A stretch of DNA of 62,415 nucleotides, counting the filler, from Sphacelaria rigidula (Eukaryota), in NCBI GenBank assembly GCA_964200075.2. It is 10 parts of 10 records of this genome, joined end to end, with 100 filler letters (N's around TTAATTAATTAA, not from the genome) between each part and the next. Parts side by side here need not be neighbours in the genome. Positions count along the whole stretch, not along the records: positions 50,014 to 56,164 come from CAXNAA020021916.1; 9 more parts are not named here. One strand, 5' to 3'. Below are positions 3,017 through 56,300 of this stretch, piece after piece (position 1 is the stretch's first letter; each line of letters starts with the position of its first letter). A model generated the notes under the pieces. It saw only the letters and a list, made by a program, of their open reading frames with translations, was not told where the DNA came from and made no database searches. Position numbers and translations under genes: made by a program.

Positions 3017-3259
3017 ATACACAGATATTTTCTGAGGTTAGAAAAATTAGGAGCCCTTTATCTCATGCACAACAGGATTTATGAAAATATGCGAGAGTCC
3101 GCCAGGATTACTATTCCAATGTGCTGGGGATATCTCGAATAANNNNNNNNNNCAAACGGGGATGCCCTGGCCCATATTCTTGTGCGTCTGGAATCGTTTG
3201 GAGCCCCTGAACCAGACAAAATTTCGAGAAAAAAGTGCACCCCTACCGTAGCATTGCCC
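3017..3259 (+). mobile_element. MITE of the GAG...CTC family, left end lost
   Basis: Colinear with the complete copy at 38031-38287. Ends in GTGCACCCCTACCGTAGCATTGCCC. Confidence 0.75.
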
Positions 3260-3874: not shown

Positions 3875-5051
3875 TGTCATAAAGAGGGAGTAGCTAATGC
3901 ACCGGCTGGGGTCTCCTCAGTATGAGTGCCAGGAGATACCATGGTGCCAACCTACCAAGCTCCCACGTGGGCAGCATCACATAGATCTAGCTATCCATCC
4001 TTGACTACCACAGAGTAGGTTCATCCATGTTCAGACTGTTGACTAGGAACTCACGTGTTTGCTTAGCATCGTGTTTTATCTACAAGCAGCTCTCATACTC
4101 AGTACAGCCGCAGGGCAGCCATAGGAGCAGAGCGTAGTGATGGCGCAGGGTAGACCACAGCAAGGGCATGTGACAGCATGTCACAGGCAGTAACTGACTG
4201 AGGGCGGCTCAACGCCGTGTGATGGAGCCGAAACAATCTCAACTAATGACAATAGCAAACGCGATAACAACGCGTCACGGAACTCAAGGTCTACGAGCAG
4301 ACCCGCACAGCGTATATCATGCAACGCCTCTGAGCTTCATCACACTAGCCCATCCTAGACGAGTCCTTATGCAGTTGAATCATCATCACCTCGGCACAAT
4401 GTAAGTGCGCCGAAGAATTTCATTATTCAACGTGTAAGGGCTCTTCTACACTATATTCGTACGAAAGCATGAAGCGAAGAAAAAAATCACTCTCCCACAC
4501 CTCTAAGAGGCGAGCATCGCTGCGATCCGGCACAGCATCAAACGTTCAATCCACAAAAAGGAAGACATTGTGTCTACGTGCCACTCACGCACCTATGTTG
4601 AACAAGACAACACACACGCAAGCCCACCTACAAAGTCCAAGCACTAACTGGTACGCACGCGTAGACTTCATCTACCAACGGAACAAGAACGGAATGCCAG
4701 GTAATCCGGGAAAAGGGGAGGGAAATTGCAGTTGCGGCATAGCATCGCGGCAACTGCTCTGGTCGGACGCAGATCCAAGTGAGCTCCATGTCTGTGTTCG
4801 ACTCCGTCCTGACACATCCGTCGCGTATAGCGAGAGTGGCACCCCGCTCGTTTCCTTGGCAGAGCGTTTGAAGTAGCAAATCTGCCTTGAAAAAGGCGTG
4901 CAGCGTGAAGTACAATGCGATGGGGGGGGGGGGGGGGGCGACCGCGCAGGGGGGGGGGAAAGGCGGGGGGGAGCCGGTGTTAGCAGATGGTTGGCGCAAA
5001 GAGGNNNNNNNNNNAAAAGAAAAAAAGTAAGCAAAGAAAGGGGGGGAAGGA

Positions 5052-5082
<31 letters not shown>

Positions 5083-6152
5083 CTACGCAGCAACGTGGAG
5101 ATAAAGCCGGGATGTAGCCGATGTTCAGGTTTGGTGTGCCCGAAGTGCGAATTCAAAACCTCTGCGGGGGTGGGCACGAGCCCATCCAAGACGACACTTG
5201 GGGTAAGAAGCCAAATGTCGTTGGTGAGAACTTGTCGTTCAGCGCGGCGGATCAACTATCGCGTGATATGAGCGAAAATGTAGTGCCAATTAAACAAAAC
5301 CCCGTCAGAACGCAATAACAATCGTCCGGCAGAAATACGGCCTACAACAAGGGCGGTATAAGTGGTCATTCCCGGTTGAACACTGGACCACGAGCAACGG
5401 AACGACACAAGAGAACACACCCGTGTCGCTAGCTGACCAGGCTGCGCTACGGGATAGGGGTAGAGCAAACAAACGAATACATCCAGATGATTTGCCGAAA
5501 TGCAGTAACTCACCTCGACCTAAAACAGTCGTCGGGCATAAATACGGCCTACAACAAGGGCGGTATCATTAGCAGTACACGGTGTAACCAAGGACCCGTG
5601 CAACAAGACGATGTAAGGGAGAACTCCCGTGCGGCGTGCTCTCCTAGCTGGAGCCAGGGGTTGAGCAGTGACCACAACAAACACATCCAGAGAACGAGTC
5701 ATCAAACATTCCAAACATGCGGGAGGCAGGAATAAATCTACAGTCCTTTCGTCGCGTAAAGAAACCTCGAAGACAAGAAGAAGAAGAAGAAGAAGAAGAA
5801 GAAGAAGAAGAAGAAGAAGAAGAAGAAGAAAAAATCACCAGATGCTCAGGGGACACGGACAGAGATGCGACAGCGACAAGAAATATGACTACAGTTACTA
5901 GAAACGGAATAACCAAGAAGGTGAACTCAGCGCAAAAAAACACTATACCAAAACCTCTGGGGGGTTATAATGCGGCAAAGGGGAGGGGGTGGCTATGGTC
6001 TGATATCTGACCAGATCGGACTGAGGGGTTGTGAAATCCGCCAAGGTGAGCTCATCGCTCGCCGCATTGCCGAGGGATGCTGACGGTGTGTCGTAGCAAC
6101 TCAAGTATAGTCCTACGATACAACCGGTGTTGGGGGGCTACGATCTGATATC
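3875..6152 (+). mobile_element. Long non-coding dispersed repeat starting with TG (LTR/LARD-like), copy 1
   Basis: Colinear diverged homology with the reverse complement of about 13315-15609. Shared start TGTCATAAAGAGGGAGTAGCTAATG vs TGTAATATAGATGGAGTAGCTAATG. Internal duplicated unit AATACGGCCTACAACAAGGGCGGTAT at about 5333 and 5541. Confidence 0.65.
5775..5830 (+). repeat. (AAG)n microsatellite
   Basis: About 18 perfect AAG units. Confidence 0.95.
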
Positions 6153-6252: not shown

Positions 6253-6311
6253 CAAAATTTCGAGCAACAAATGGCCCAAAATACCCCCCCCCCCTATCGT
6301 AGGATGACTTT

Positions 6312-13314: not shown

Positions 13315-14983
13315 GAGATCCCAGATCGTGCCCCCCACCCAACATCGGTTGTATCGTAGCCCCCGCAACATCAGTCGCTACTACATACCGCCCGCATCCC
13401 TCGGCGATGCTCTGAGCGATGAGCTCACCTTGGCAGATGTAGGAATCCTCCAAATCCCCCCCCACCCCCCCCCTCCCTCCCCTACGGCTGTTCTGTCTTG
13501 CTGTGGTGTCCTACATATGTACATCGGCGTGCTTCTTGCTGGTTGCCGTTGGTGCTCTGGTACACTCTTCCTGCCGTACGTTGTAATGGAGTTTTGTTTC
13601 CGTGCATTACTTTTTGCGCTCATGATAGCATAATAATTGTACACGAACGAACCACTTCCCCTTTGCTGCGTTGTTGTCTCTCACTGGTTTTGGTACCGTG
13701 TGCTTGCTGGTGTTGGATTCGCCTTGTTGGTCACTACGCTTCTAGTACCCCTAGTCACATTTGTTGTCGCTGTCGCATTCCTGTTTGTGTACCTGAGCAT
13801 TCAGTGTTATGCTATGTCTTCGAGGTTCTAATGCGATGACAGAACTGTAGATTTACCCCAGCCACTCACATGTTTGGCATCTTGATGACTCATTCTCCGG
13901 ATGTATTCGTTGTTGTCACTGCTCACCCCCCTGCCGCCAGCCAAGAGAGCTCGCCGCATGGGAGTACTTCTTTGTATCGTCTTGTTGCACGGGTCCTTGG
14001 TTACACCACGTACGGCTAATTATACCGCCCTTAACGTGGTCCGTATTTCTGCCCGACGACTGTTTCATGTCGAGTTGAGTTACTACGTTTCGGCAGTTCA
14101 TCCGGATTTGTGCTTTTGTTTGTTCTACCCCTATCCCGTGGAGCAGCCTGGCGAGCTTGTTTGAGCTGGGCGTTTCCTCTTGTGTCATTCCGTTGCTCGT
14201 GGTCCAATGTCACCATGGGAGTTACCAATTATACCGCCCTGATTGTAGGCCGTACTTCGCCCGACGATTGCTTTGAGTTGGGTATTGTGTTCTGACGAAG
14301 ACCCCTTTTTAATTTACAATATGTTTTGGTTATAACACGCGATGGATTATCCGCCGCGCTGAACGATAAATTCTCACCAACGACCCTTGACTTCTTGCCG
14401 TGAGTGTGGTCTTGGGTGGGCTTGTGCTCACTCCTGCCGAGGCTTTGAATTTCGCACTTCGGGCACACCAAACCTGAACTTGGGCTGCACCCGCACTTTT
14501 ATCTCCCTGTTGCTGCGTAGTCTCCTCCTATCGCACCGTACTTCACGTTGCACGCCCTTTTCAAGGCAGGTTTGATACTACTAACGCCCTGCCACGAAAA
14601 CGAGCGGTGTGCCACTCTCGCTATACGCGACGGATGTGTCGGGACGGAGTTAGACAAAGACGTGGAGCTCACTTGGATCTGCATCCGACCATAGCAGTTG
14701 CCGCGATGCTACGCCGTAACTGCGCTTCCCCTCCCTTTTCCCCGCATTGTTCGGCATTCCCTCCTTGTTCCTTTGGTATATACAGTATACGCGTGCGTAC
14801 CATTTAGTGCTTTACTTTGTTGATGGACTAGCATTCGCGTTGTCTTGTTCAACGTAGGTAGTGAGTGTCTCGTAGATACAGCGTTTTCTTCTTGTGGATT
14901 GAACGTGTCATGTGACGGGTCGCAGCGATGCTTGCCCCTTGAGGTGTGGGAGAGAATTTCTTCTTCTTCTTCTTCTTCTTCTT

Positions 14984-18756: not shown

Positions 18757-18790
18757 AAGGCAAGCAACAAATGAGTACGCCCCCCCCCCC
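18757..18790 (+). mobile_element. 3' terminus of the C-tailed LINE family
   Basis: AAGGCAAGCAACAAATGAGTACG followed by C12; matches 53190-53230 and the reverse complement of 38720-38750. Confidence 0.7.
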
Positions 18791-25008: not shown

Positions 25009-25079
25009 TAGAATCGGTAGGAGCCCCTGAACTAGACATAATTTCGCGAAAAAAGTGCACCCCTACCGTAGCATTGCTC
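25009..25079 (+). mobile_element. Right end of a GAG...CTC MITE
   Basis: GTGCACCCCTACCGTAGCATTGCTC terminus, as in 38031-38287. Confidence 0.8.
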
Positions 25080-28000
25080 TTCCCAAGTCCTAGCCGTTTA
25101 ATGCATGCGACTACAACCGTGTCTCTTGTCTCTCGTTATTCCCGTAAACTTCTTCAGGGCCTGATGAGCATACACTTCACATCTTCACGTGCATGATGCA
25201 CAACACTCTACGGCACGTAATATGCTTGAAACGCCTTCTCTGCGTACGCTCCGTCGTATCCATCGCCAGCATCGACCTCCCCAAGCCGGAAGAATATATA
25301 TGGAAAGCACGCCGGAGCTTTCGAAAGGTGTGAGGGTGTCTTGGTGGTTGCTCCCCACAGCTGTCCCTTCGTGAACAAGGCCCATCTGAAGTAGCACCGA
25401 CTGTAGAGTGAATTTACACCAAGACATCACATGCTGCGGTAGAAGCGTGAAGTGAGCAAACGCCTGATCTTCACGAAAAGCATACCGCAGTCGTCTTCAT
25501 CGACAGGCCGCCTTCGATGTGTGTAAGCATTTTTGTCCACCTATGTAAATGACCTCCTCGAGTTGAGTGTATAGCAGTCTAAGCGACGGTCCTTGAGTCG
25601 AGAACGGTGTGACGAGACGGAAGATATTCCTTTTCAAAGGATCCACGGTACTACAGCCCCCATAATTTTATTGTCGGGATGTCATCCCGTATTTCGAAGG
25701 ACAAGTTTGGTGAATTGCACCCCCACCGATATTTTCGATGATGTCACCAGACAAGTGACACACGACTTTTTGTTTGTTTCTGATCGTGCATACGGAGGGC
25801 TTCACATCAACCCATTCTTATAGTATCAAAACGCCAGCAGCAACGTCTGGGTTGAGCTTCAAGGTGGACGCAACGAAATCAACACATCGACAACAAATAG
25901 GTGTTGACACACACGGGGGGCTGCGGGGGAAGAAAGCTTTTTGTCACCGTAGGGCGTTGTAGATATCGAAAGAGAAGGAGTGTTGGTACGCACTATTTCA
26001 GGAGCTGTGAGCGGCGTGAAAATCCAGGCAGGGTGAGTCGCCATCTAGAACTCGACGTAAAACTTACCCCCAACCCAATGACTGGCGGGGGCGAGTGAGA
26101 GTTATTCAAGGGGGCGTCTGTACTTCTCCCCTTCACATGCTAGTCTGAGTTGTCGGGCTGTCACGTCTAGCCTTGCTCGGCTTCTCTTGACTGTGTGTTT
26201 GTGGTGCTGTGACCTGCAAAGTACAGTTCACCACACGCGAATCAGCCGAGGTGTGCTGCTTCGGGACGGCGAGATACGTACACAACATGCGCGTCGCGTA
26301 AGGTACCGCCGCGAGGCTAACCCGTTGGTAACATGGATGTGTGTGTGCGCGTCTCTTTTTGTCAAGACAAAGAGCGCGGATTTCGTTGTCGCTTGAGTTT
26401 AGTCAGAGCAATGTCGCTATGATATGTGTGTCCTTGTATGGGTGACATTCGCGCTGCTTGTGAGCAGCTCGATATCGTAAAGGGACATGGGGGATATTAT
26501 ATTCCAAGGAGAAAACAATGTACACAAAGAGCGAGGGATGGCTTGACAGCTGATTGAGCGCTCATTTGCTATCTCTGGAGCCTTCGGGCTTTGACCGCGC
26601 GATGGGGGCGAGGGGAATTTCATTTGCTGTATATACCGAAAAGATCCTGCCCCAATACTTTCCGCCTGGTGACGCTGCAATGATCCACGAGTTTGGTGAA
26701 AACCCAACACGGTTTTCTGTCACAAACCCGCGCGTAACCTGACGTTAACCCCCCCCCCCCCCCCCCCCCCGCCCCCCCCCCCCCCCCCCCGCCCGGGGCC
26801 CGCCATCNNNNNNNNNNACCGATTTGGTGAAAACCCCACCCGGTTTCTCTCCCCCACCCCCCGCCGAACCCGCCCCTCCCCCCCCCCCCCCCCCCCCCTC
26901 CCTCCACCCGGTGCCGACGCGGATTTGGCACTGTAGCAATGTCCCAGTTGAACGTGCTATTGCCTTCTTCAACATCATGTACGGTCGCTTGACATCGTTC
27001 AAACAAATATAGTACAGGAAATATCCGGGCGTTCCTTCCACTGAGTACTCTTGTCACCATTTCTCACAGCGACTTTTCCAGCAAGCTTTTTCAACCATTT
27101 CTTGTTGGACCATCATCGAGAGAAGCCCTTTCTGAGATCAGGGGATATTTCCACAGAGACGATTTTCTACCCATTTTGTCGAGAAAGAGTTTTGGTTTCG
27201 GACAGATCAAGGAAACGGGGTCTGTCTATCTCACACGCCTTTCGTCAAGTATGCTGCGGTTCCTGTAGCCATACAGACAGTACATGCGTGAAGTACAGCT
27301 GCACACCGCACAGCACACATAATACATGGTCCAGAAACAATGAAATACAGCCGGTGCCGCTGCGCAAAGGCACAGACAGCACGCGCAGCCACGGCACGTA
27401 GCTGTACACTACATATATGCATGCAAAAACGACAGCAGTAGAGGACTATCGAACAGTACATGCAGTACAGCCGCACAGACAGAGCACTGTACAATATACA
27501 TACATGTACGGAAATATGCCATGAAGACGGCACACAGCTGTAGACAACGGACGGTACAGCGGCCGCTGTTTCGTGTGCCGAACATCGAGCGGCAAGCAGC
27601 ACAAAAGCTCTCGACCTCATTTTGGTGTACAAGACCGCCAAACCTTTTCTAAAGATATTTTATGAGATCTGAGGGACTAGTTTCGTCGACGCCGCGAAGG
27701 GGTGCCGAGAGAAGGGCACTACCTAATCGTCTCCAGGCCTTTTTTCGGACGGTAAGAAGCGACCTACCGTGGAGTGGGAATTTCAGTTATATTTTCGAGG
27801 GACGGCGGGAGCGGGGGGTATCGGCACCGGTTCAAACATTGAAGTGCGATTGACGTCCAAAGGCAACACTCACGGGGGCGAACAACAACAAGGGCATGCG
27901 TGTTATCAGCGACAGAGGAGGCTTAGGAATGGAGAAACAGGAGACACCCTATTGGCATTGCTATTTCTTGTGAAGTCCGTGATGAGGTCGGCAGAACACA

Positions 28001-38030: not shown

Positions 38031-38287
38031 GAGTGATGCTACGGTAGGGGTGCACAAATATTTTCTGAGGTTACAATTGTTAGGAGCCCTTTATCTCGTG
38101 CAAAACACGACCTACGAAAATATGTGAAAGTGCGCCAGGATTACTACTCCGATGTGCTGGGAATATCCCGAATGAATTTGCAAACGGGGATGCCCTGACC
38201 CGTATTTTTGAGCATCTAGAATCCTTGGGAGCCTCTGAATTAGACATAATTTCGGGGAAAAAGTGCACCCCTACCGTAGTATTGCTC
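38031..38287. mobile_element. 257-bp MITE with GAG...CTC ends and 4-bp TSD (Sola2-like)
   Basis: TIRs GAGTGATGCTACGGTAGGGGTGCAC / GTGCACCCCTACCGTAGTATTGCTC. TSD TGTA at 38027-38030 and 38288-38291. Confidence 0.85.
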
Positions 38288-38650: not shown

Positions 38651-39003
38651 GGGGGGCGGGGGGGGGGGCGGGGGGGGGGGGGGGGGGGGGGGCGGGGGGG
38701 GGGGGGGGGGGGGGGGGGGGGGAAAGCATACTCGTTTTTTGCTTGCCTTCGCCATTTGACCGGTGACCGCGCGACACTTAGCCGGAGCACCGTTCCTACA
38801 CCAAATAAATACCTCCAACATTTGGGCACTCATGGCGTTTCTTCTATTCATGACACACAATTGTTTCCAGATCTTATCCCCTTCCTGCTTCATCTTCTGT
38901 GGCCACCATTTATCTCCGAGTATAGCGATCGTTTTCTCGCTACAATTCCATGTACCAAACGATTCCATACCACCTTCATTTTAATCCCGCATTTCCTCCT
39001 CTA
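38651..39003 (-). mobile_element. 5'-truncated copy of the C-tailed LINE
   Basis: MESFGTWNCSEKTIAILGDKWWPQKMKQEGDKI matches LESFDALDSREKTMARPGDGCWPQMAKQDGDKI of the LINE at 52935-53030. Ends AAGGCAAGCAAAAAACGAGTATGCTTT followed by poly(C). Confidence 0.85.
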
Positions 39004-40099
39004 TGTACTGCGTGTGCGGTGGTACCTCTGATTCGATTTCCATGCGGAAACCACGGCCGCGGCACGGCAAATGCGATCGTCCCCAAAGGATGCAAGGCGC
39101 TCAGCAGTTTGCCCACGAACCGCTTGAAGTATCTCTTGACGTGGTCGTTTATTAGTGTCAGGATGCTTTTCTCGGCATCCAAGGAGACGAGGATAAGCTT
39201 CGGCTGGCGTGCCACAGCCAGTGAGTCACCTCCATCGAAGAGCTCACCCCCTCTACGAAGTAGGTTTTCCGCGTGCGTGGTAGAATTCTTGCGCCTATGT
39301 GAAAACATAAAGGCCATTCCACACGGTACATATCGATATCCGACGGAAGAACGCGGGTGAAGCGCGAACCTGAAGCAGACAACAAAAGCACCGTCGAAAT
39401 ACGCACCCTACCCGACGGAGCATTATCACGTATTCCCGCTTTCATATTTATTAGCCTGCAGTTATCACCGACTGCCTTTAATGTATGATCTCTCCATTGC
39501 GTTAACTTGTGTTGTGTTTTTGTTACGAGCGCACCTCTTGGGGGGGGTGGGGGGTCGCCGACATATACCCCGCGGTACTATCACGGAGATATAGTGTTTA
39601 TATCTCGTCGGCCATATCTACATCGGAATATTGTCAAATTCGACGAATCGTGGCACAAACAAACCGCAAGTATGACAAGAGTGGTAACAAACAAACACAG
39701 TATAGAAGATGATACTATGTATCGAGTGTTGGCGTCTGATTAAGACCTATGGTATTGCCTTACGCCGCCACATCCCTCCCCTCCCCCACCCTGACGTAGG
39801 AACACTCTCACGGTGTACTCCGAGAGTATGAACGCTACACAGCCATAGTTGCCAACCGATCGGTGATTTGTTGCGTTTGTGTATCCGCGGGGAGGTGAGG
39901 GTTATGTGATCAAGGACACTCGCTGAGAGACACGTGCTGAAAAGATGAAATTCACCGGCGAGTGTTTTCACACGAGGAGACGCTCGTCTGGATCTGCGAT
40001 CTTCGCATCTTTGCTCTTCCATGGTGGCGCCGGCGAGCGGTCGGGGAACCCTTGCCTTCCTCGCTTTCTTCCCGCTATTTGGTGTAACGCCGTCTCCGG

Positions 40100-43000: not shown

Positions 43001-43782
43001 AAGACACTTTGCGTTTGAAGGTGGACAGAGGTATAACATTTGCCTGACTCGTACGTTGGTCCAAGCACGGTCAGCCGGTAAACAAAATGTCCCGCGTTTT
43101 ATCCAACAGACCGTTCTTGGGCAAAAATGTAATTGTTGCAAAAATCACCTGCGGCCACCGGAAAACGCAAAGATGTTTTTGACCCGTCTCAACGAGTGTA
43201 GCAATACAGTAGCAGTTGTCAACAATCGCGTACAAGGTTGTTCGTTCGGCTAAAATCTATAACGGCCACCAGAAAAACTCGAAGGTGCCCTGCAATCGTC
43301 TTAACCGCTGAAGCACGATATTCGAAGGTGTCTGCGTTTGGGCCGTAACCCGACCCATCTGGACCACATAAACAGTTCGTGTCAGGTTATTCTTGTCTGC
43401 CATAAGAATCGGCATGATGAACGGCGACAGCCGAGCTGTCGATTACGTCGACAAATCGAACAACGTAAGCCCGACTGCATGTTACTTGAGAACTGTGGCA
43501 TTGGAATCTACTTTGTTTTGTTTTCGTTTGGAATCTGAGAATTGAACGAAAGGTCTGAAAAAAATGCGCCTAAACACGTCCCGTCGATGACGATCGTCCA
43601 CTGCCCCTCCCACCACCCCCACAGCAAGCCAAACAAAGCAACCCAACAAAAGAAAAAAGAAANNNNNNNNNNNNNNNNNNNNNNNNNNNNNNNNNNNNNN
43701 NNNNNNTTAATTAATTAANNNNNNNNNNNNNNNNNNNNNNNNNNNNNNNNNNNNNNNNNNNNCCCCCCCCCCTCCCCGCCCC

Positions 43783-43857
43783 TCCCTCTCGAAAGGGATG
43801 CATGGTTAATTTGAAGTGAATGAGACAAGCAACAAATAAGAACGTCTTCCCGCTCCT
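43783..43857 (+). mobile_element. Short 3' fragment of the C-tailed LINE next to a C-run
   Basis: CCCTCTCGAAAGGGATGCATGGT..ACAAGCAACAAATAAGAACGTCTTCCCGCTCC resembles 53118-53215. Confidence 0.55.
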
Positions 43858-50013: not shown

Positions 50014-50098
50014 CAAAAGGCAGCCGTGTCCAATGGTCAAATGACTAAGGCAAGCACCAACTGTATCCCCCCCCCCCCCCCCTATCGTAGGATGACTC
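50014..50098 (+). mobile_element. 3' end of the C-tailed LINE fused to the C-run of a MITE terminus
   Basis: GGTCAAATGACTAAGGCAAGCACCAACTGTAT + C-run + TATCGTAGGATGACTC. The same MITE end occurs without LINE at 6283-6309. Confidence 0.65.
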
Positions 50099-50206
50099 TA
50101 TTGCTGCGTTGTGGTCATGTGCGTGTATGCTAACCGCCATCGCCCGACTTCATGTTCGGTGATTCGCATTCACTCATGTCTTTTTGTGCTCGGGAAGCAC
50201 CTAATA

Positions 50207-50359
50207 ATGGATGCTGCATACGAGGCGAACCTGTACAGTGCGTACGAAAGGCGGGTACAAGAAGCGGCGCGACCAAGACCGGTTCTCCCCGTTACGATAA
50301 TCACCGGTTTCCTCGGGGCGGGTAAGACCACCCTGCTACGGAAAATTCTCCGATCCAAG
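50207..50359 (+). CDS. CobW/COG0523 (G3E P-loop GTPase, metallochaperone) first coding exon
   Basis: MDAAYEAN..LPVTIITGFLGAGKTTLLRKILRSK followed by a GT donor. The family signature is PVT(I/V)ITGFLGAGKTTLL. No further exon found in this contig. Confidence 0.85.
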
Positions 50360-50784
50360 GTGTGTGTGCCATGTTCATTTTCAGTTATGATTAGGAGCGA
50401 CTGGCACGCGACATACCCACAATATTTGGTGACACGAAAAATAACTTCCCGAAACGTTTTTCGAGGTATGTCCGCTAGGGTTGGATGTTGCGCCTGCTCT
50501 CGTACATCGAGTGCATTGCACAGACTACCACATGGTACCTCGTGGTTCAAACGCCGCATACACTCTTGTTTGTCACAGATCTTCATGCTCGTCCGTTACA
50601 GGGAAAGCATTGTAATATTTCGAACCATAGCCGCGCTCAAATCGAGGCATGTCGTTGATGAAACTCCGACAGCTCAGGATCCCCCCACTCCTCATCTCGG
50701 GCTAAGTGATGCAAGTGATGCCATTTCCGTCGCCGGGAAAATTCCCGATTGGAGCCCTTCGATTTCATTCCCCCCCGAATTCCC

Positions 50785-53230
50785 AAGAAGGGAGTATGGA
50801 AAAATGTTGTGGATGAAACAAACGAAGATTTCGGTGGTGGGATTAAACAAATGTGGGTAGGGATAGAGGGGATAACGGGAAACCAGGCAGGGAAGATAAA
50901 CAATGGGCAAGTCACACTCCGGGCGTCGAACGGTAGAATGGTCAGTAGTTCGAAGTGGAAGAGAGAAATGCAAGTCGAGCTCTACCGTAAACTAGGAACA
51001 CCACAACAAACCCGAAGTTCGACACGGATTTAAAAAAAGTCAACACGTGGACAGGGGTAGATCTAGAGACGTCAAAACGGGAGGGTAGTGGCTCGAAATA
51101 TTTGCAAAGAAAATTTACCAGAGATAAAGTGAAGGTGTGCGTAGCTAAACTCAAGAGCAGAAAGGCAGCAAGTGCAGACGAAATAGTAAATGCATTTTGA
51201 AGTACGGGGGGGAAGGGAATGATCATCATGATGATTATGCTGTATAACTGGATCCAGGGAAACGAGTATACACCCAAGAGGTGAGGAGAAGGAGTAGTCG
51301 CCAATCTTTTCGAAAAAGGAGGCAAAGCCGACCCATGGAATTATAGAGGGATAACGCTAGTAAGCACGGTAGGGGAAACATCCTGTCAAATTCTAAACGA
51401 TAGAGTAGAAACGATGGTAGAACAGGAAGACAAAATCAACGAGGCACAAGCAGGATTTAGACCAAACCGTAGTTGCGTAGACCATGTGTACACACTAAGT
51501 AAGATTATTCAAGGTAGGAAAGACACCTGGCTAACCACGTACTGTTCCTTTCTGGACGTTCAAAAGGCTCATGACACAGTATAGAGAAATGGGTTGTGGA
51601 CAACGTTAAGGGAAACTGGGATCAGAGGAAATATGTGGGGAATGGTGAAGATGACAGAATGTGCCAAAAGTGCTGTCATGCTAGACGAGGAAATATCGAA
51701 TTATTTCGATATCTTACGAGGAGCTGAACAAGGACGTACGTTATCACCCACTTTGTTCAAGGTATTTATCAATGACGTGATGAGCAATAGAAGCAGCAAA
51801 GCAAGGGGTCAACGTGGGTGAAGATACGGTATCATGATTGATGCTCGCGATTGATTTTATGGGGATTTCAGGAACACCGGAAGGGTTATAGGAACAGACA
51901 AGGCGCTAGAATACACTGGGAAATGGAGAATGACAGCGAACGTCAACAATTGCGCGGTACCCGCCTGTAACGGAGATGAGAAAAATCCGGTTGAATTCAA
52001 GTGCGAGTGGGGAGAAGAGGAATTGCCGATCGTAGACCAGTATACATACCTTGCTGTAGATATCTCCAAAAACTGTTTTTGGGATGCACACATGAATGAA
52101 GTATTACAACAGGGTGAGGCACAACTAGGCAGAATGGACGTGATCCTCAGAGACTCGCACCTAGATACTAGGGTTAAGGGATGTATCCTGACGAACGTGA
52201 TTGCACCATAGCTGGAATGTGCCGGAGACGCATGGGTTGGGAACGTGAAGTTGGTGAAGAAGTTGGAATAGCAAAGATGGCAGCAGCTAAGAAAGTACTT
52301 GGATGCTCGAAAAGACGAGTAATACAGCATTGAGAGCAGAGTTGGGAATATGCTCACTTGAAAAAACAGAGACATGGGAAACCTGAGATGGCAATATAGC
52401 GTGAAGAATATGTAGAGAAAGATATTGCCAGCCGTAGTTGATAGGGCTGTATGAAATCAAATTACGAAAGGACAGGCTGGAATAAGGTACACAGAAGTCG
52501 AAAAACTATGGAGGGAGATTGGCGGAAACCAAGACGAAATACTGTCAATGGGTGAAGGCGCGGGGTACGAGACAAAGGTAAAAGGCGGGATAGAAATAAT
52601 CGAAAAAGAAGCGCTCAGACGCGAAGTAGACGAGGAAGAACACCTGGAGATATACGGGTGGTTGAGAGAGGGGATGAGGAATGAAAACATATTGACATGG
52701 CGCAATGGATCCGCCGGAAAATATGAAACTGCGATTTCGGGTGGGGGACCTGGACCTGCCAGAGAGAAGATAGAGATACACCAATCGTCGAAAGGAGGAG
52801 GAAGTAGACAAACAGAAATGCCGCTGGGGCGAAGCAATTGAGAGCAGAAGTCATATAGTGGCAGAATGTGAACTATACAAGGAGAAACGGGACGTGCTGG
52901 AGGGCAAAATGTGGGACGTGAACAAAGGTGGCCTGGAATCGTTTGACGCATTAGACAGTAGGGAGAAAACGATGGCTAGACCAGGAGATGGATGTTGGCC
53001 ACAGATGGCGAAACAGGACGGGGATAAGATACGTGAAAGGTTTTTGTGTGATGTATGGAAGAAACGAAATGAGCACCTTAATGTTGGAGGTGCCTCTATA
53101 TGGAGTGGGATCGGCGCCCCGTCCCGAGAGGGATGCGTGGTCACTAGTCAAACGGGTGTACTCATGATCATGCAAACGGGTGAGGAAATAACGAATGAGT
53201 ACGCCCCCGCCTCCTTCCCCCCCCCCCCCC
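50785..53230 (+). mobile_element. Degenerate 5'-truncated non-LTR retrotransposon (LINE ORF2: RT plus C-terminal Zn-finger) ending in a C-rich tail
   Basis: KAASADEI; KGGKADPWNYRGITLVSTVG; EAQAGFRPNRSCVDHVYTL; FLDVQKAHDTV; GAEQGRTLSPTLFKVFIND; VDQYTYLAV; ESRSHIVAECELY. Multiple stops and frameshifts. Confidence 0.95.
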
Positions 53231-53406
53231 GCGAAATTTCCTTATCCCCCAAACATTTAGGTGCCAATTATGAAACTCTTGTGACCCTCGACCAATTTCA
53301 AATCGTGTTTAGCGGGCGTGGCCGGCGCGTGCCTCTCTTCTATTTGCAGATGGGTAGGGAAAGGCTGATTTGCAATATATTTTCTAGGCAGGTGTGGCTG
53401 ACCCGT

Positions 53407-53830
53407 AACAGCCGATCATCGAGATTGAGGATGAGAACCCGGAGGATGAAATTTTCGTACCCACACCAAATCTTCGAAATATGGTTCTAATCCTTCATCT
53501 ATTGGTAGCTATTGACACGTGCTACACGCCATACAAATTTGGAGTTCGATAACCGAAATATTGGGGTCGTGGGTGTAGGAACAATTTGGGGGAATTTTGG
53601 TAATCCGATCGAATCGCCGAAATTCCCCGGAATCGTTTTTTCACATAGGACCCCAACATTTTGGTGATCGAAATCCAAATTTGTGTAACGTGTAGTACTT
53701 GTCAATAGCTACCAGTAGGTGAGGGGTCGGAACCATAATTTGAAGATTTGGTGTGGATACGAAGATTTTAATCCTCCGGGTTCTCATCTTCAATAAAAAA
53801 CTCCATCCTGAATTTCGATGATCGGCTGTT
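53407..53830. mobile_element. 424-bp fold-back MITE, AAC family variant
   Basis: Termini AACAGCCGATCATCGA / TCGATGATCGGCTGTT. TSD CCGT at 53403-53406 and 53831-53834. Internal arms are homologous to 6541-6984. Confidence 0.9.
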
Positions 53831-55321
53831 CCGTGCGTCTCTTTCGGCAGCGCGGAACCAGCAAGCCTTGCCATCCCAAACCCAACACAAGGCATCTTGC
53901 TGTGATCTGTTGAATATATGTGCTGCGTCGCACACGTTAACGTGCGCTTCTCGAAAACGTTAGTTCAGCCCCAGAGCTGTGCCGTCATGGCTATCTTCTG
54001 CGATGTTTCGGTATCATACTCGTTCGCAGTATATATACCTATATTCGTAACTTATTAACACATTTTTCTCATTCCCATGCCGCTGCCGTTCCACGGACTG
54101 CTGCCATTGTCTACCCTTAAATTTTCTCACACACACATTGCCTCTAGCGAATACGCAGTCTTGGTTGAGATCGCTCTCGCTGAGAGCTCCTTCGTGCGTC
54201 GCAGGCCTTATACGGCTACTAGTTCGCAAACTGAGTTTATCTCTCTGTTTGGTCATACGCGTTCCAGAGCGTTGGCATCGCAACGGGAGGGTTAGTTACA
54301 GAGAACGCTGCTCCACGCCCATGCCTTGTGCCATCAAGCGGTGAACGCGCAAGCGTGAGCCACGATCATGAAATGGGTACACATAGCCGTGACGCATCGA
54401 GACATCAGCAGCGATCGCGCCTGAAGAATTTGTAGACATACATATATACTGCGAAAGATTTAGAAGCAGTGGCGTGAGGGCGTGGGCGTCAACGTTTACG
54501 TCGCTCCTCGCGACTGTTGGGCAACGATGCCTGTCACATGACAGCCAAACTCCATGCTATTGGCTATGCTCTACATTTTTTACATTTGTTTGCTGACCAC
54601 TCGTAGCCAACGAGCGTGTATGTTAAGGTTCTCGAAGAGAAGATCTCAAACTGGCGAGATCATCAGCAGGCTACTACTAAAATGAATCGGTATGGGCGCT
54701 AAAAGGGTTGAAGCTTCGGTACTAGCCATATTTGGAATGGTATTTTCGCTGACCATCCCGTGGGTACAGGGGGGTGCGCATCTGTTCGAAGGAGGTGGGG
54801 CATGTTCGACGACCTGTGCAACGGGCTAGGAAACGAGAAAAATGATGACACAACTGTCAAGCTGGGATAGATTTCGTGCACGCATTGCCTGATCTTGCTT
54901 ATCTCACAGCGAAGCCGTATTTTACCATTTTACAAGGGACACTAGCCGCCGCGCCCTGGTGGTCTGAATTATAATGATAAATTGAAACCAGCTACCGTGG
55001 GAGATTGCTGGTGTGAAACCCGGCTGATGTTTTTTTTTGTGAGAAGTATATGATTTTCGTCATTGAAAACGTCAGGCGCTGGTAGCAAGAATGTTATTTG
55101 ACGAGCGTCGGCGCGGTAAGGGAGTCATGATCCAGCCCGCGATACCAAAAACTGGGGGAGGGGCGATTGACAAATCCCGTGGTAACACGGCCTCAGAAGC
55201 TGCACACGGTACGGTGACTGCAACTACAGGCCGGCTGCGGGTGAAAGCCCGAAACATATTCCCCACCAGATACAGAACGTAGTACTGTCCCGATAAAAAC
55301 ATATTTGGTATCGTAGTGACC

Positions 55322-55446
55322 CCACAAGGGAGCGAAAATCTGATCGTGTTACATTTTTCGCTCCCTTGTGGTGTACTCATGACTATGGCATGCATGATCA
55401 TGAGTACATCACAAGGGAGCGAAAAATGTGACACGACCAGATTTTT
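55322..55446. repeat. Compound palindrome with three alternating copies of CACAAGGGAGCGAAAA
   Basis: Motif on + at about 55323, on - at about 55355, and on + at about 55410. About 48-bp hairpin arms at 55335-55382 and 55399-55446. Confidence 0.8.
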
Positions 55447-56300
55447 TTTCGCGTCCTTCGCCGTGGCGCTGGTCGTGAAAATGTTTCTCCGCCAATCAAG
55501 GGCTATTGTTCTGAAATTGAAATCCGAATTCTTGACACAATTTGTACTCGATCTCATCACGAATCAAACCTTAGTATCCGCCATCACCTACAGAACCAAA
55601 CACAAAAAATATTCGAAACCCGTTTGTATGGGATCGAGTTATACCGCAGACATGGTATTCCGGCGATCTGGGGTTTCGGCGTCGTCGGAACTCTACTGAC
55701 GGTGTGCATCAAAACCCCAGAAAGCTTCTTGACATTTTCTGGTGTATTTTTCGTATAATTGCTCCGATCACCCTCAAACTCGGCAATTTGGGGAGATTTG
55801 GGTGCTCTGAATGAAAAAAACGTCGTTGAAGAATATTGCACAAGTCTATTCGCTCTCCACCGGCTTCTGGGAGTCCCAGCGGGAAGACCCCGCAAAAGCC
55901 GGTACAGACTGCTTCAAGATTGAAAACTCAAATTTGACCCGTCTTGAAAAAGTGTAAGAAACGTTTGTACAACGTTTTGTTGCGTAACTCGAAAAGCGGG
56001 TCTCAAACGGTCGATTTACGCTCAAGCGCACAAGGAAAATGTCGGTAACACACATTAACCCTTTTGGAACTGGACCTCCAGAACGACCAACGAGGCTGGT
56101 TAGTAATGACGTGTCCTGCATATGGATGAAACAGTGGCTTCATTTTGCTAAAAACCAACGTATGNNNNNNNNNNNNNNNNNNNNNNNNNNNNNNNNNNNN
56201 NNNNNNNNTTAATTAATTAANNNNNNNNNNNNNNNNNNNNNNNNNNNNNNNNNNNNNNNNNNNNCGCCTACCATTTCGATCTCTATTATACCAGTAGCTA

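Follow-up and report, generated by a model that had tools for sequence, protein, structure and literature searches.

Does a retrotransposon that ends in a run of cytosines carry that run with it, or does it find the run waiting in its target? The question is raised by a decayed, 5'-truncated long interspersed nuclear element (LINE) at positions 50785-53203 (plus strand) of a 62,415-base stretch of Sphacelaria rigidula DNA (assembly GCA_964200075.2), hereafter the window, which comprises ten samples of about 6.15 kb each from different contigs, separated by spacers of the form N44-TTAATTAATTAA-N44 and with five N10 gaps inside samples. A sequence-only reading of the window had proposed that a LINE family here ends in poly(C), appears to target C runs and had no described counterpart known to that reading. 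The analysis reported here indicates that the window copies probably represent one very abundant LINE family lacking long terminal repeats (non-LTR), from a brown-alga-like genome and belonging to the type that Ectocarpus curators list as RTE-X (RTEX-1/2_Ec32).

The copies are tied together by a common 3' end. A blastn search of the window with an intact relative from another assembly (L003) returned exactly the five sites that had been cited as sharing a LINE end, and all the matches finish where the element does, or slightly beyond: 50785-53152 (nt 2742-5124 of L003, 75% identity), 38711-39003 on the minus strand (nt 4870-5165, 72-77% identity), 43782-43844 (nt 5089-5152), 50016-50082 (nt 5099-5165, 84% identity over 67 nt) and 18757-18790 (nt 5130-5163, 100% identity over 34 nt). 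At the protein level, tblastn with the related protein P0002 (1360 aa) covers aa 559-1353 in the long copy and aa 1239-1360 in the minus-strand copy, a short 3' fragment of about 350 nt (38727-39082) that extends to 39082 by this measure. The shared terminus, AAGGCAAGCAACAAATGAGTACG, had been taken for the end of a 3' untranslated region (UTR); it is instead made up of the last five codons of the open reading frame (ORF), K-A-S-N-K, followed by the stop codon and GTACG, and P0002, P0003 and P0005, the last an Ectocarpus sp. gene model, have the C-terminus ...NGQMTKASNK in common. The TGA of the ORF stands 5 nt from the element end (the ORF end is 7 nt off with the stop codon counted), and the element is essentially without a 3' UTR. 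No chance match to the 23-mer terminus arose in 100 shuffles. In these alignments the copies start at different points of L003 (nt 2742, ~4790 and 5089) but all end at nt 5152, a pattern that target-primed reverse transcription (TPRT) usually leaves behind. Positions 18757 and 50014 are the first bases of contig samples, so the 5' parts of the copies there are not visible.

What follows this end was tallied in seven copies, the five of the window and two from other public assemblies (L001 and L002/L003). To look for outside copies, a degenerate pattern that covers the final ten codons, stop included, and nothing past it was scanned against three public collections, the tail being left out so that C runs would not be selected for. 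This pattern found one marine-metagenome contig (L001) and one contig wrongly binned into a bacterial metagenome-assembled genome (MAG; L002/L003); among the viral contigs scanned it found no loci. In five of the seven copies a run of at least five C begins at the base next to ...GAGTACG (C11, C16, C5, C8 and C13), namely in three of the five window copies and in both outside ones. At 18757-18790 (plus strand, at the start of a contig sample) the last 23 nt of the element, an exact terminus at 18757-18779, are followed by C11, and at 50016-50082 (plus strand, likewise at a sample start) the last ~50 nt of a diverged copy, with its terminus at 50047-50066 (...GCACCAACTGTAT), are followed by C16. 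The terminus of the long copy (53181-53203, plus strand) ends AATGAGTACG and leads into C5GCCTCCTT and then C14 (53217-53230), a C-rich tail and run that together occupy 53204-53230 on the plus strand. The outside copies read GAGTACG-C8-GCACCTCC... (L001) and GAGTACG-C13-GTTGGGGG... (L003). The minus-strand fragment has a terminus with 3 mismatches (38727-38749), then CTTT and C29-G-C23-G-C11-G-C6, a tract (38651-38726, G on the plus strand) that runs into an N10 gap, so that its true length is uncertain. A C run is thus found at or within 4 nt of the element end in six of the seven copies, lying 4 nt past it in one, and the seventh is merely C-rich at this point. None of the seven has a poly(A) or A-rich tail. 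Beyond the C run the sequences are unrelated to each other and differ at every locus. Since runs of at least five C begin at 0.1% of strand-positions in the window, the tail association is not due to chance, and the proposal that the same terminus leads into C-rich or poly(C) sequence, never poly(A), holds in all seven copies.

Homopolymers invite suspicion of artefact, and the C runs could in principle be products of sequencing or assembly, or chance neighbours in a genome rich in G/C tracts. The longest tracts do adjoin N10 scaffold gaps, and Logan contigs stop inside the C16 run at 50074/50075, which makes the lengths of long tracts unreliable. However, the same LINE/C-run junction occurs in two unrelated public assemblies (L001, L002/L003) and within contigs whose sequence is unique to either side of it, runs of at least five C have the low base rate given above, and the same feature appears in the Ectocarpus library curated on the v5 assembly, as described in the available supplementary notes of PMC12477816. 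A 431-nt Logan contig spans 53048-53478 with 0 differences in run X2 and 1 difference in run X4, although runs X2-X4 may be the assembly's own data and contigs rather than raw reads were used. From a different study, an X1 contig covering 50074-50877 crosses the 5' junction and shows 1 difference, and among the X1 contigs listed none lies over 53048-53478, which is evidence neither way. Data of the X1 and X2-X4 types differ from one another by SNPs. Artefact is refuted as to the existence of the runs by the outside assemblies and spanning contigs, and this explanation as a whole, chance included, is highly improbable. The contig comparison covered 50014-56164, and the best-supported contig ends listed for this part do not include the 53203 boundary. 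Summed contig depth, which is not equal to copy count, reaches 1e5 to 2e6 over the element against 30-70 on unique flanks, and so indicates a very high copy number.

The insertion sites themselves look C-rich. Both of the readable 5' junctions have a C run no more than 25 nt upstream, where runs of at least seven C have a base rate of 0.87% of positions: C7 (50771-50777) lies directly upstream of the long copy, and C10 with further C-rich sequence (43763-43781) directly upstream of the copy at 43782-43844, which is flanked by C-rich sequence on both sides. At a further site the tail was thought to merge with the C run of a miniature inverted-repeat transposable element (MITE) terminus also seen free of the LINE, and this was borne out, as 50072-50097 and 6284-6309 are identical over 26 nt, consisting of a C run and TATCGTAGGATGACT. 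These last 15 nt (50083-50097, plus strand, after C16) form the outer terminus in a MITE-like family; the LINE-free paralogous end at 6284-6309 (plus strand), a paralogous 'empty site', carries C11, whereas the run at this place is C4 in other copies of the family (3153-3257, 25011-25077 and 38181-38285, for which 38036-38055 is an inverted end). Judged from these paralogs rather than from orthologs, the LINE at 50016-50066 seems to have landed in a C run that was already there. The two readable junctions and the paralogous MITE end give some support to the proposal of C-rich or C-run insertion sites. The MITE-like family, which includes 6253-6309, has terminal inverted repeats ending ...GTGCACCCCTACCGTAGCATTGC, with one copy of ~250 bp at 38036-38285, and a short C run ~15 nt from its end; the variant end has C11 or C16 and then TATCGTAGGATGACT.

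Pre-existing C runs raise the alternative of a tail-less, strictly site-specific LINE that inserts just upstream of such runs, the whole run being target DNA. The C runs at LINE-free paralogous MITE ends (C4, C11) and upstream of both readable 5' junctions are as this alternative would have it, as is the copy at 43782-43844, which passes directly into a C-rich flank resembling its upstream flank. Known microsatellite-specific LINEs, too, sit inside their repeat. Nevertheless, the runs behind the LINE (C16, C14 and >70) exceed those at LINE-free MITE ends (C4, C4, C4 and C11), the intact relative L003 has C13 and then G-rich sequence, and the Ectocarpus curators list (C)n within the 3' end in the available notes of PMC12477816. 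With homopolymers, tail and target are inseparable by sequence alone, and we regard an all-target origin of the run as unlikely. Less likely still is that the run is untemplated, the reverse transcriptase (RT) adding G residues to the nicked DNA end before RNA copying without any preference for C-run targets. The highly variable tail length, from 0 to >70, would suit this idea, as would an insertion at 4928-5074 with long G runs and a homopolymer-free empty paralog, which is not shown to be the LINE. Left unexplained by it are the C runs upstream of the 5' junctions, the insertion in the MITE's own C run and the 'C-rich' target-site duplications (TSDs) that the supplementary notes available from PMC12477816 record.

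The anatomy of the element bears on how it could use a C run. The long copy retains an RT domain, a C-terminal CCHC region, the stop codon and the final 5 nt; Pfam RVT_1 matches at E 1.2e-07, the RT frame of 575 codons holds 11 in-frame stops, and the frame shifts ahead of the C-terminal CCHC-type region. Read through with X at stops, it is 58% identical to P0002 at 95% query coverage and 52% identical to P0003 (1328 aa), which is itself nearly identical to the LINE-derived C-terminal part of gene model P0005. The endonuclease domain is missing from this copy because of its 5' truncation. L003 supplies the remainder, with a single open frame of 1382 aa that has no stops and is 88% identical to P0002. 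Its ATG-initiated ORF of 1333 aa is intact and carries Exo_endo_phos and RVT_1 domains, both also present in P0003, with an apurinic/apyrimidinic (AP)-like endonuclease (Exo_endo_phos/Exo_endo_phos_2, L003 aa 144-388) N-terminal to the RT in one ORF and an RVT_1 match at E 6e-32; no second long sense ORF was found in the 1067 nt upstream of it. Intact relatives have one ORF of ~1330-1380 aa in the order N-terminal domain of ~90 aa, AP-type endonuclease, RT and C-terminal CCHC region, the C-terminal region spanning ~370 aa. The conserved N-terminal domain ahead of the endonuclease (L003:3920-4195, minus strand) has a predicted ferredoxin-like fold at a predicted local distance difference test score (pLDDT) of 85.7, and its best natural matches in the PDB are RNA recognition motif (RRM) domains, including that of LINE-1 ORF1p; because these matches are weak (E 0.02-0.1), the possible RRM-like nature of the domain is a lead and no more. 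In L003 the frame stays open for 49 codons ahead of the first ATG, and the fold already begins its first strand there, which leaves the true ORF start uncertain. A protein search with the RT region of the intact relative returned 620 proteins at E <= 1e-10, and among the best 120 of these the eukaryote proteins that carry an organism name come from Ectocarpus sp., as models labelled 'unnamed protein product'. Near its 3' end, at 53153-53177, the long copy has ~23 nt (GTACTCATGATCATGC...) that are extra relative to all other copies and partly replace the KASNK-coding stretch.

A mechanism that would join these features starts from insertion by TPRT. The endonuclease would cut the bottom strand within a run of G or next to one, such a run reading as C along the sense strand of the element; the 3' end of the G run would then prime cDNA on a short C tract ending the RNA template, and homopolymer slippage would give the variable tail lengths, as proposed for LINEs of the UnaL2 (TGTAA)n type. 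Given a 3' UTR of 5 nt, the recognition signal of the RT would have to lie in the last coding ~60 nt, and it would be through this stretch, which in Ectocarpus is common to the non-autonomous RTEX-N families, that the RT recognises its template. We hold it possible, though somewhat short of probable, that brown-algal RTE-X LINEs are true homopolymer-primed elements, which pair a G run with a C run, give polyadenylation no role, keep their signal in the last ~60 coding nt and, together with non-autonomous partners (tens of thousands of copies), are a main source of long G/C tracts.

Several points weigh against this account of the family. That the RNA template finishes in a C tract is an assumption, and past C13 the intact relative L003 is G-rich, not C-rich. 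The 64-nt 5'-truncated copy at 43782-43844 (plus strand), which ends ...CAAATAAGAACG at 43823-43844, is followed by TCTTCCCGCTCCTC, C-rich sequence without a run. Decay and an N10 gap make the 5' boundary and downstream flank of the copy at 38727-39082 unreadable. Nor do the flanks of the long copy yield a convincing TSD: the C7-containing flank TTCCCCCCCGAATTCCC at 50768-50784 (plus strand), upstream of the 5' junction, is present as the sequence-only reading had it and is a possible TSD, but its likeness to the downstream flank does not stand out from that among C runs in general, since the best flank-to-flank match, TCATTCCCCCCC with TCCTTCCCCCCC, has a score of 19 that was reached by 19 of 2000 random 60-mers and by 4 of 23 N-free C-run windows (the long copy's own downstream run among the 23). 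Folded as RNA, the last 136 nt show nothing unusual (z = -0.18), which leaves a stem-loop recognition signal unsupported. Membership in RTE-X is judged from the description in print together with the likeness to proteins of Ectocarpus, and the possible shared origin of runs X2-X4 with the assembly belongs on the same side of the account. For L003 no TSD was found, the contig probably ending before the 5' end of the element, as its 1067 nt upstream of the ORF compare with a published element length of 5.5-5.9 kb.

Although the sequence-only reading knew of no described example, one exists. A 2025 paper on Ectocarpus transposable elements (TEs) reports 7 RTE-X families with 16,418 copies (PMC12477816), and its supplementary annotation notes give RTEX-1_Ec32 (5867 bp) as "single EN-RT ORF; (C)n 3'" with a "C-rich" TSD and RTEX-2_Ec32 as "(C)n termini/TSD", also with a "C-rich" TSD. 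According to the same source, the non-autonomous RTEX-N1 and RTEX-N2 share the 3' 60-100 bp, RTE-X lengths are 5.5-5.9 kb with best blastp matches to RTEX-4_NV and RTEX-1_BF, Ectocarpus RTE families have (CAA)n tails and CRE a (CA)n tail, and the TE library was curated on the Ectocarpus v5 assembly, which is termed near-complete; the main text, as far as available, does not discuss the C tail. Poly(C)-tailed LINE behavior is therefore already on record for Ectocarpus and is not new. RTEX is a recognised Repbase clade, as stated in the text available from PMC4455052, and repeat tails with slippage in stringent LINEs, among them UnaL2 (TGTAA)n and the I factor (TAA)n, are covered in the available part of PMC3747384. 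Our literature searches on poly-C tails in retrotransposons gave no paper with such a phrase among the matches listed, and a Blepharisma paper containing the words 'RTE-X' and 'C-rich' was set aside as irrelevant, 'C-rich' there describing the terminal inverted repeat of a DNA transposon. In the RT region L003 is 95% identical to P0002 and 80% identical to the Ectocarpus-like P0003; the family of the window is thus a related family, probably that of another brown alga, and RTEX-1/2_Ec32 are compared with it by description.

G/C tracts are not confined to the LINE. Where G/C runs of at least 8 cluster in the window, at ~18 places, only 4 of the clusters adjoin it, and others belong to MITE ends or to different repeats. 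The insertion at 4928-5074, with an N10 gap inside and with G17/G10 and G28 at its borders, is defined relative to a paralogous repeat copy at 14524-14528 (minus strand), with 4703-4927 matching 14748-14524 (87%) and 5075-5294 matching 14528-14308 (81%); the empty paralog reads GCGAT-AGGAGGAG-ACTACGC and has no homopolymer. Judged by this comparison, a short element may occupy 4928-5074 and have carried in, or generated, the G/C runs on both sides, and it has no similarity to the LINE 3' end. Two adjacent units at 26692-26781 and 26823-26909, ~77% alike and with an N10 gap between them, end in C22+C19 and C21; they recall the published RTEX-N1, which 'can be present in tandem', yet lack the LINE 3' end. 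Inverted-repeat pairs at 1360-1368/2000-2010 and 29493-29501/29706-29713 have a C/G run of 8-11 by ...GATAG or ...GGTAG, and these runs lie inside other repeat families, independent of the LINE. Just upstream of the long copy, an open frame at 50096-50700 encodes the P-loop of a CobW/HypB/UreG-type GTPase (Pfam cobW, E 1.3e-06) and is probably a host-gene exon. The mis-binned MAG that holds L003 has a second, distant LINE-like RT fragment (L004, G001:C51:1-1912; 33% identity to P0002 aa 661-795), which points to further eukaryote contigs in that bacterial bin.

Because a poly(C) tail cannot come from polyadenylation, the family provides a clean natural test of how TPRT chooses its primer and start point. 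In print, as far as our literature searches and the available parts of the sources show, the feature amounts to a few words in a supplementary table, and its mechanism is unstudied. Were homopolymer priming correct, the family would be a natural C-for-A counterpart of L1, mechanistically never studied, and its G/C tracts, with those of its partners, would break short-read assemblies. In this assembly scaffold gaps and contig breaks fall at these tails and targets, and repeat maskers that expect poly(A) will misplace the boundaries of the element.

Among known systems, the microsatellite-specific LINEs of the R1 clade, reportedly treated by Kojima and Fujiwara in 2004, resemble the family of the window in inserting into simple repeats that match the element's 3' junction. 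Waldo, Mino, Kibi and Koshi are families of this type. They belong to another clade and have di- or trinucleotide targets, whereas the specificity of the window family looks loose, its sites being C-rich and not only runs. With L1-type LINEs the family has in common the logic of a 3' homopolymer, a target starting with the same homopolymer, a merged TSD and tail, and 5' truncation; L1-type elements, however, have poly(A) and prime between a T run and an A run, while the window family has a single ORF reaching to 5 nt from its end and a homopolymer of C, not A, for which polyadenylation cannot account. UnaL2, the I factor and the Ectocarpus RTE and CRE families likewise have a variable-length repeat tail other than poly(A), but here the tail repeats one base only, a 3' stem-loop lacks support and the 3' end held in common is coding sequence. 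The closest likeness is to RTEX-1/2_Ec32, which match the window family in having a single EN-RT ORF with endonuclease (EN) and RT, a (C)n 3' end and, in the published parts available, frequent 5' truncation and thousands of copies; a 3' end held in common with non-autonomous partners (RTEX-N1/N2) is, in those same parts, a feature of Ectocarpus. The Ectocarpus RTEX elements measure 5.5-5.9 kb, and the longest relative of the window family 5152 nt or more, being ended by its contig. At their targets, finally, RTEX-1/2_Ec32 have 'C-rich' TSDs, and the family of the window has C runs upstream of two of two readable 5' junctions.

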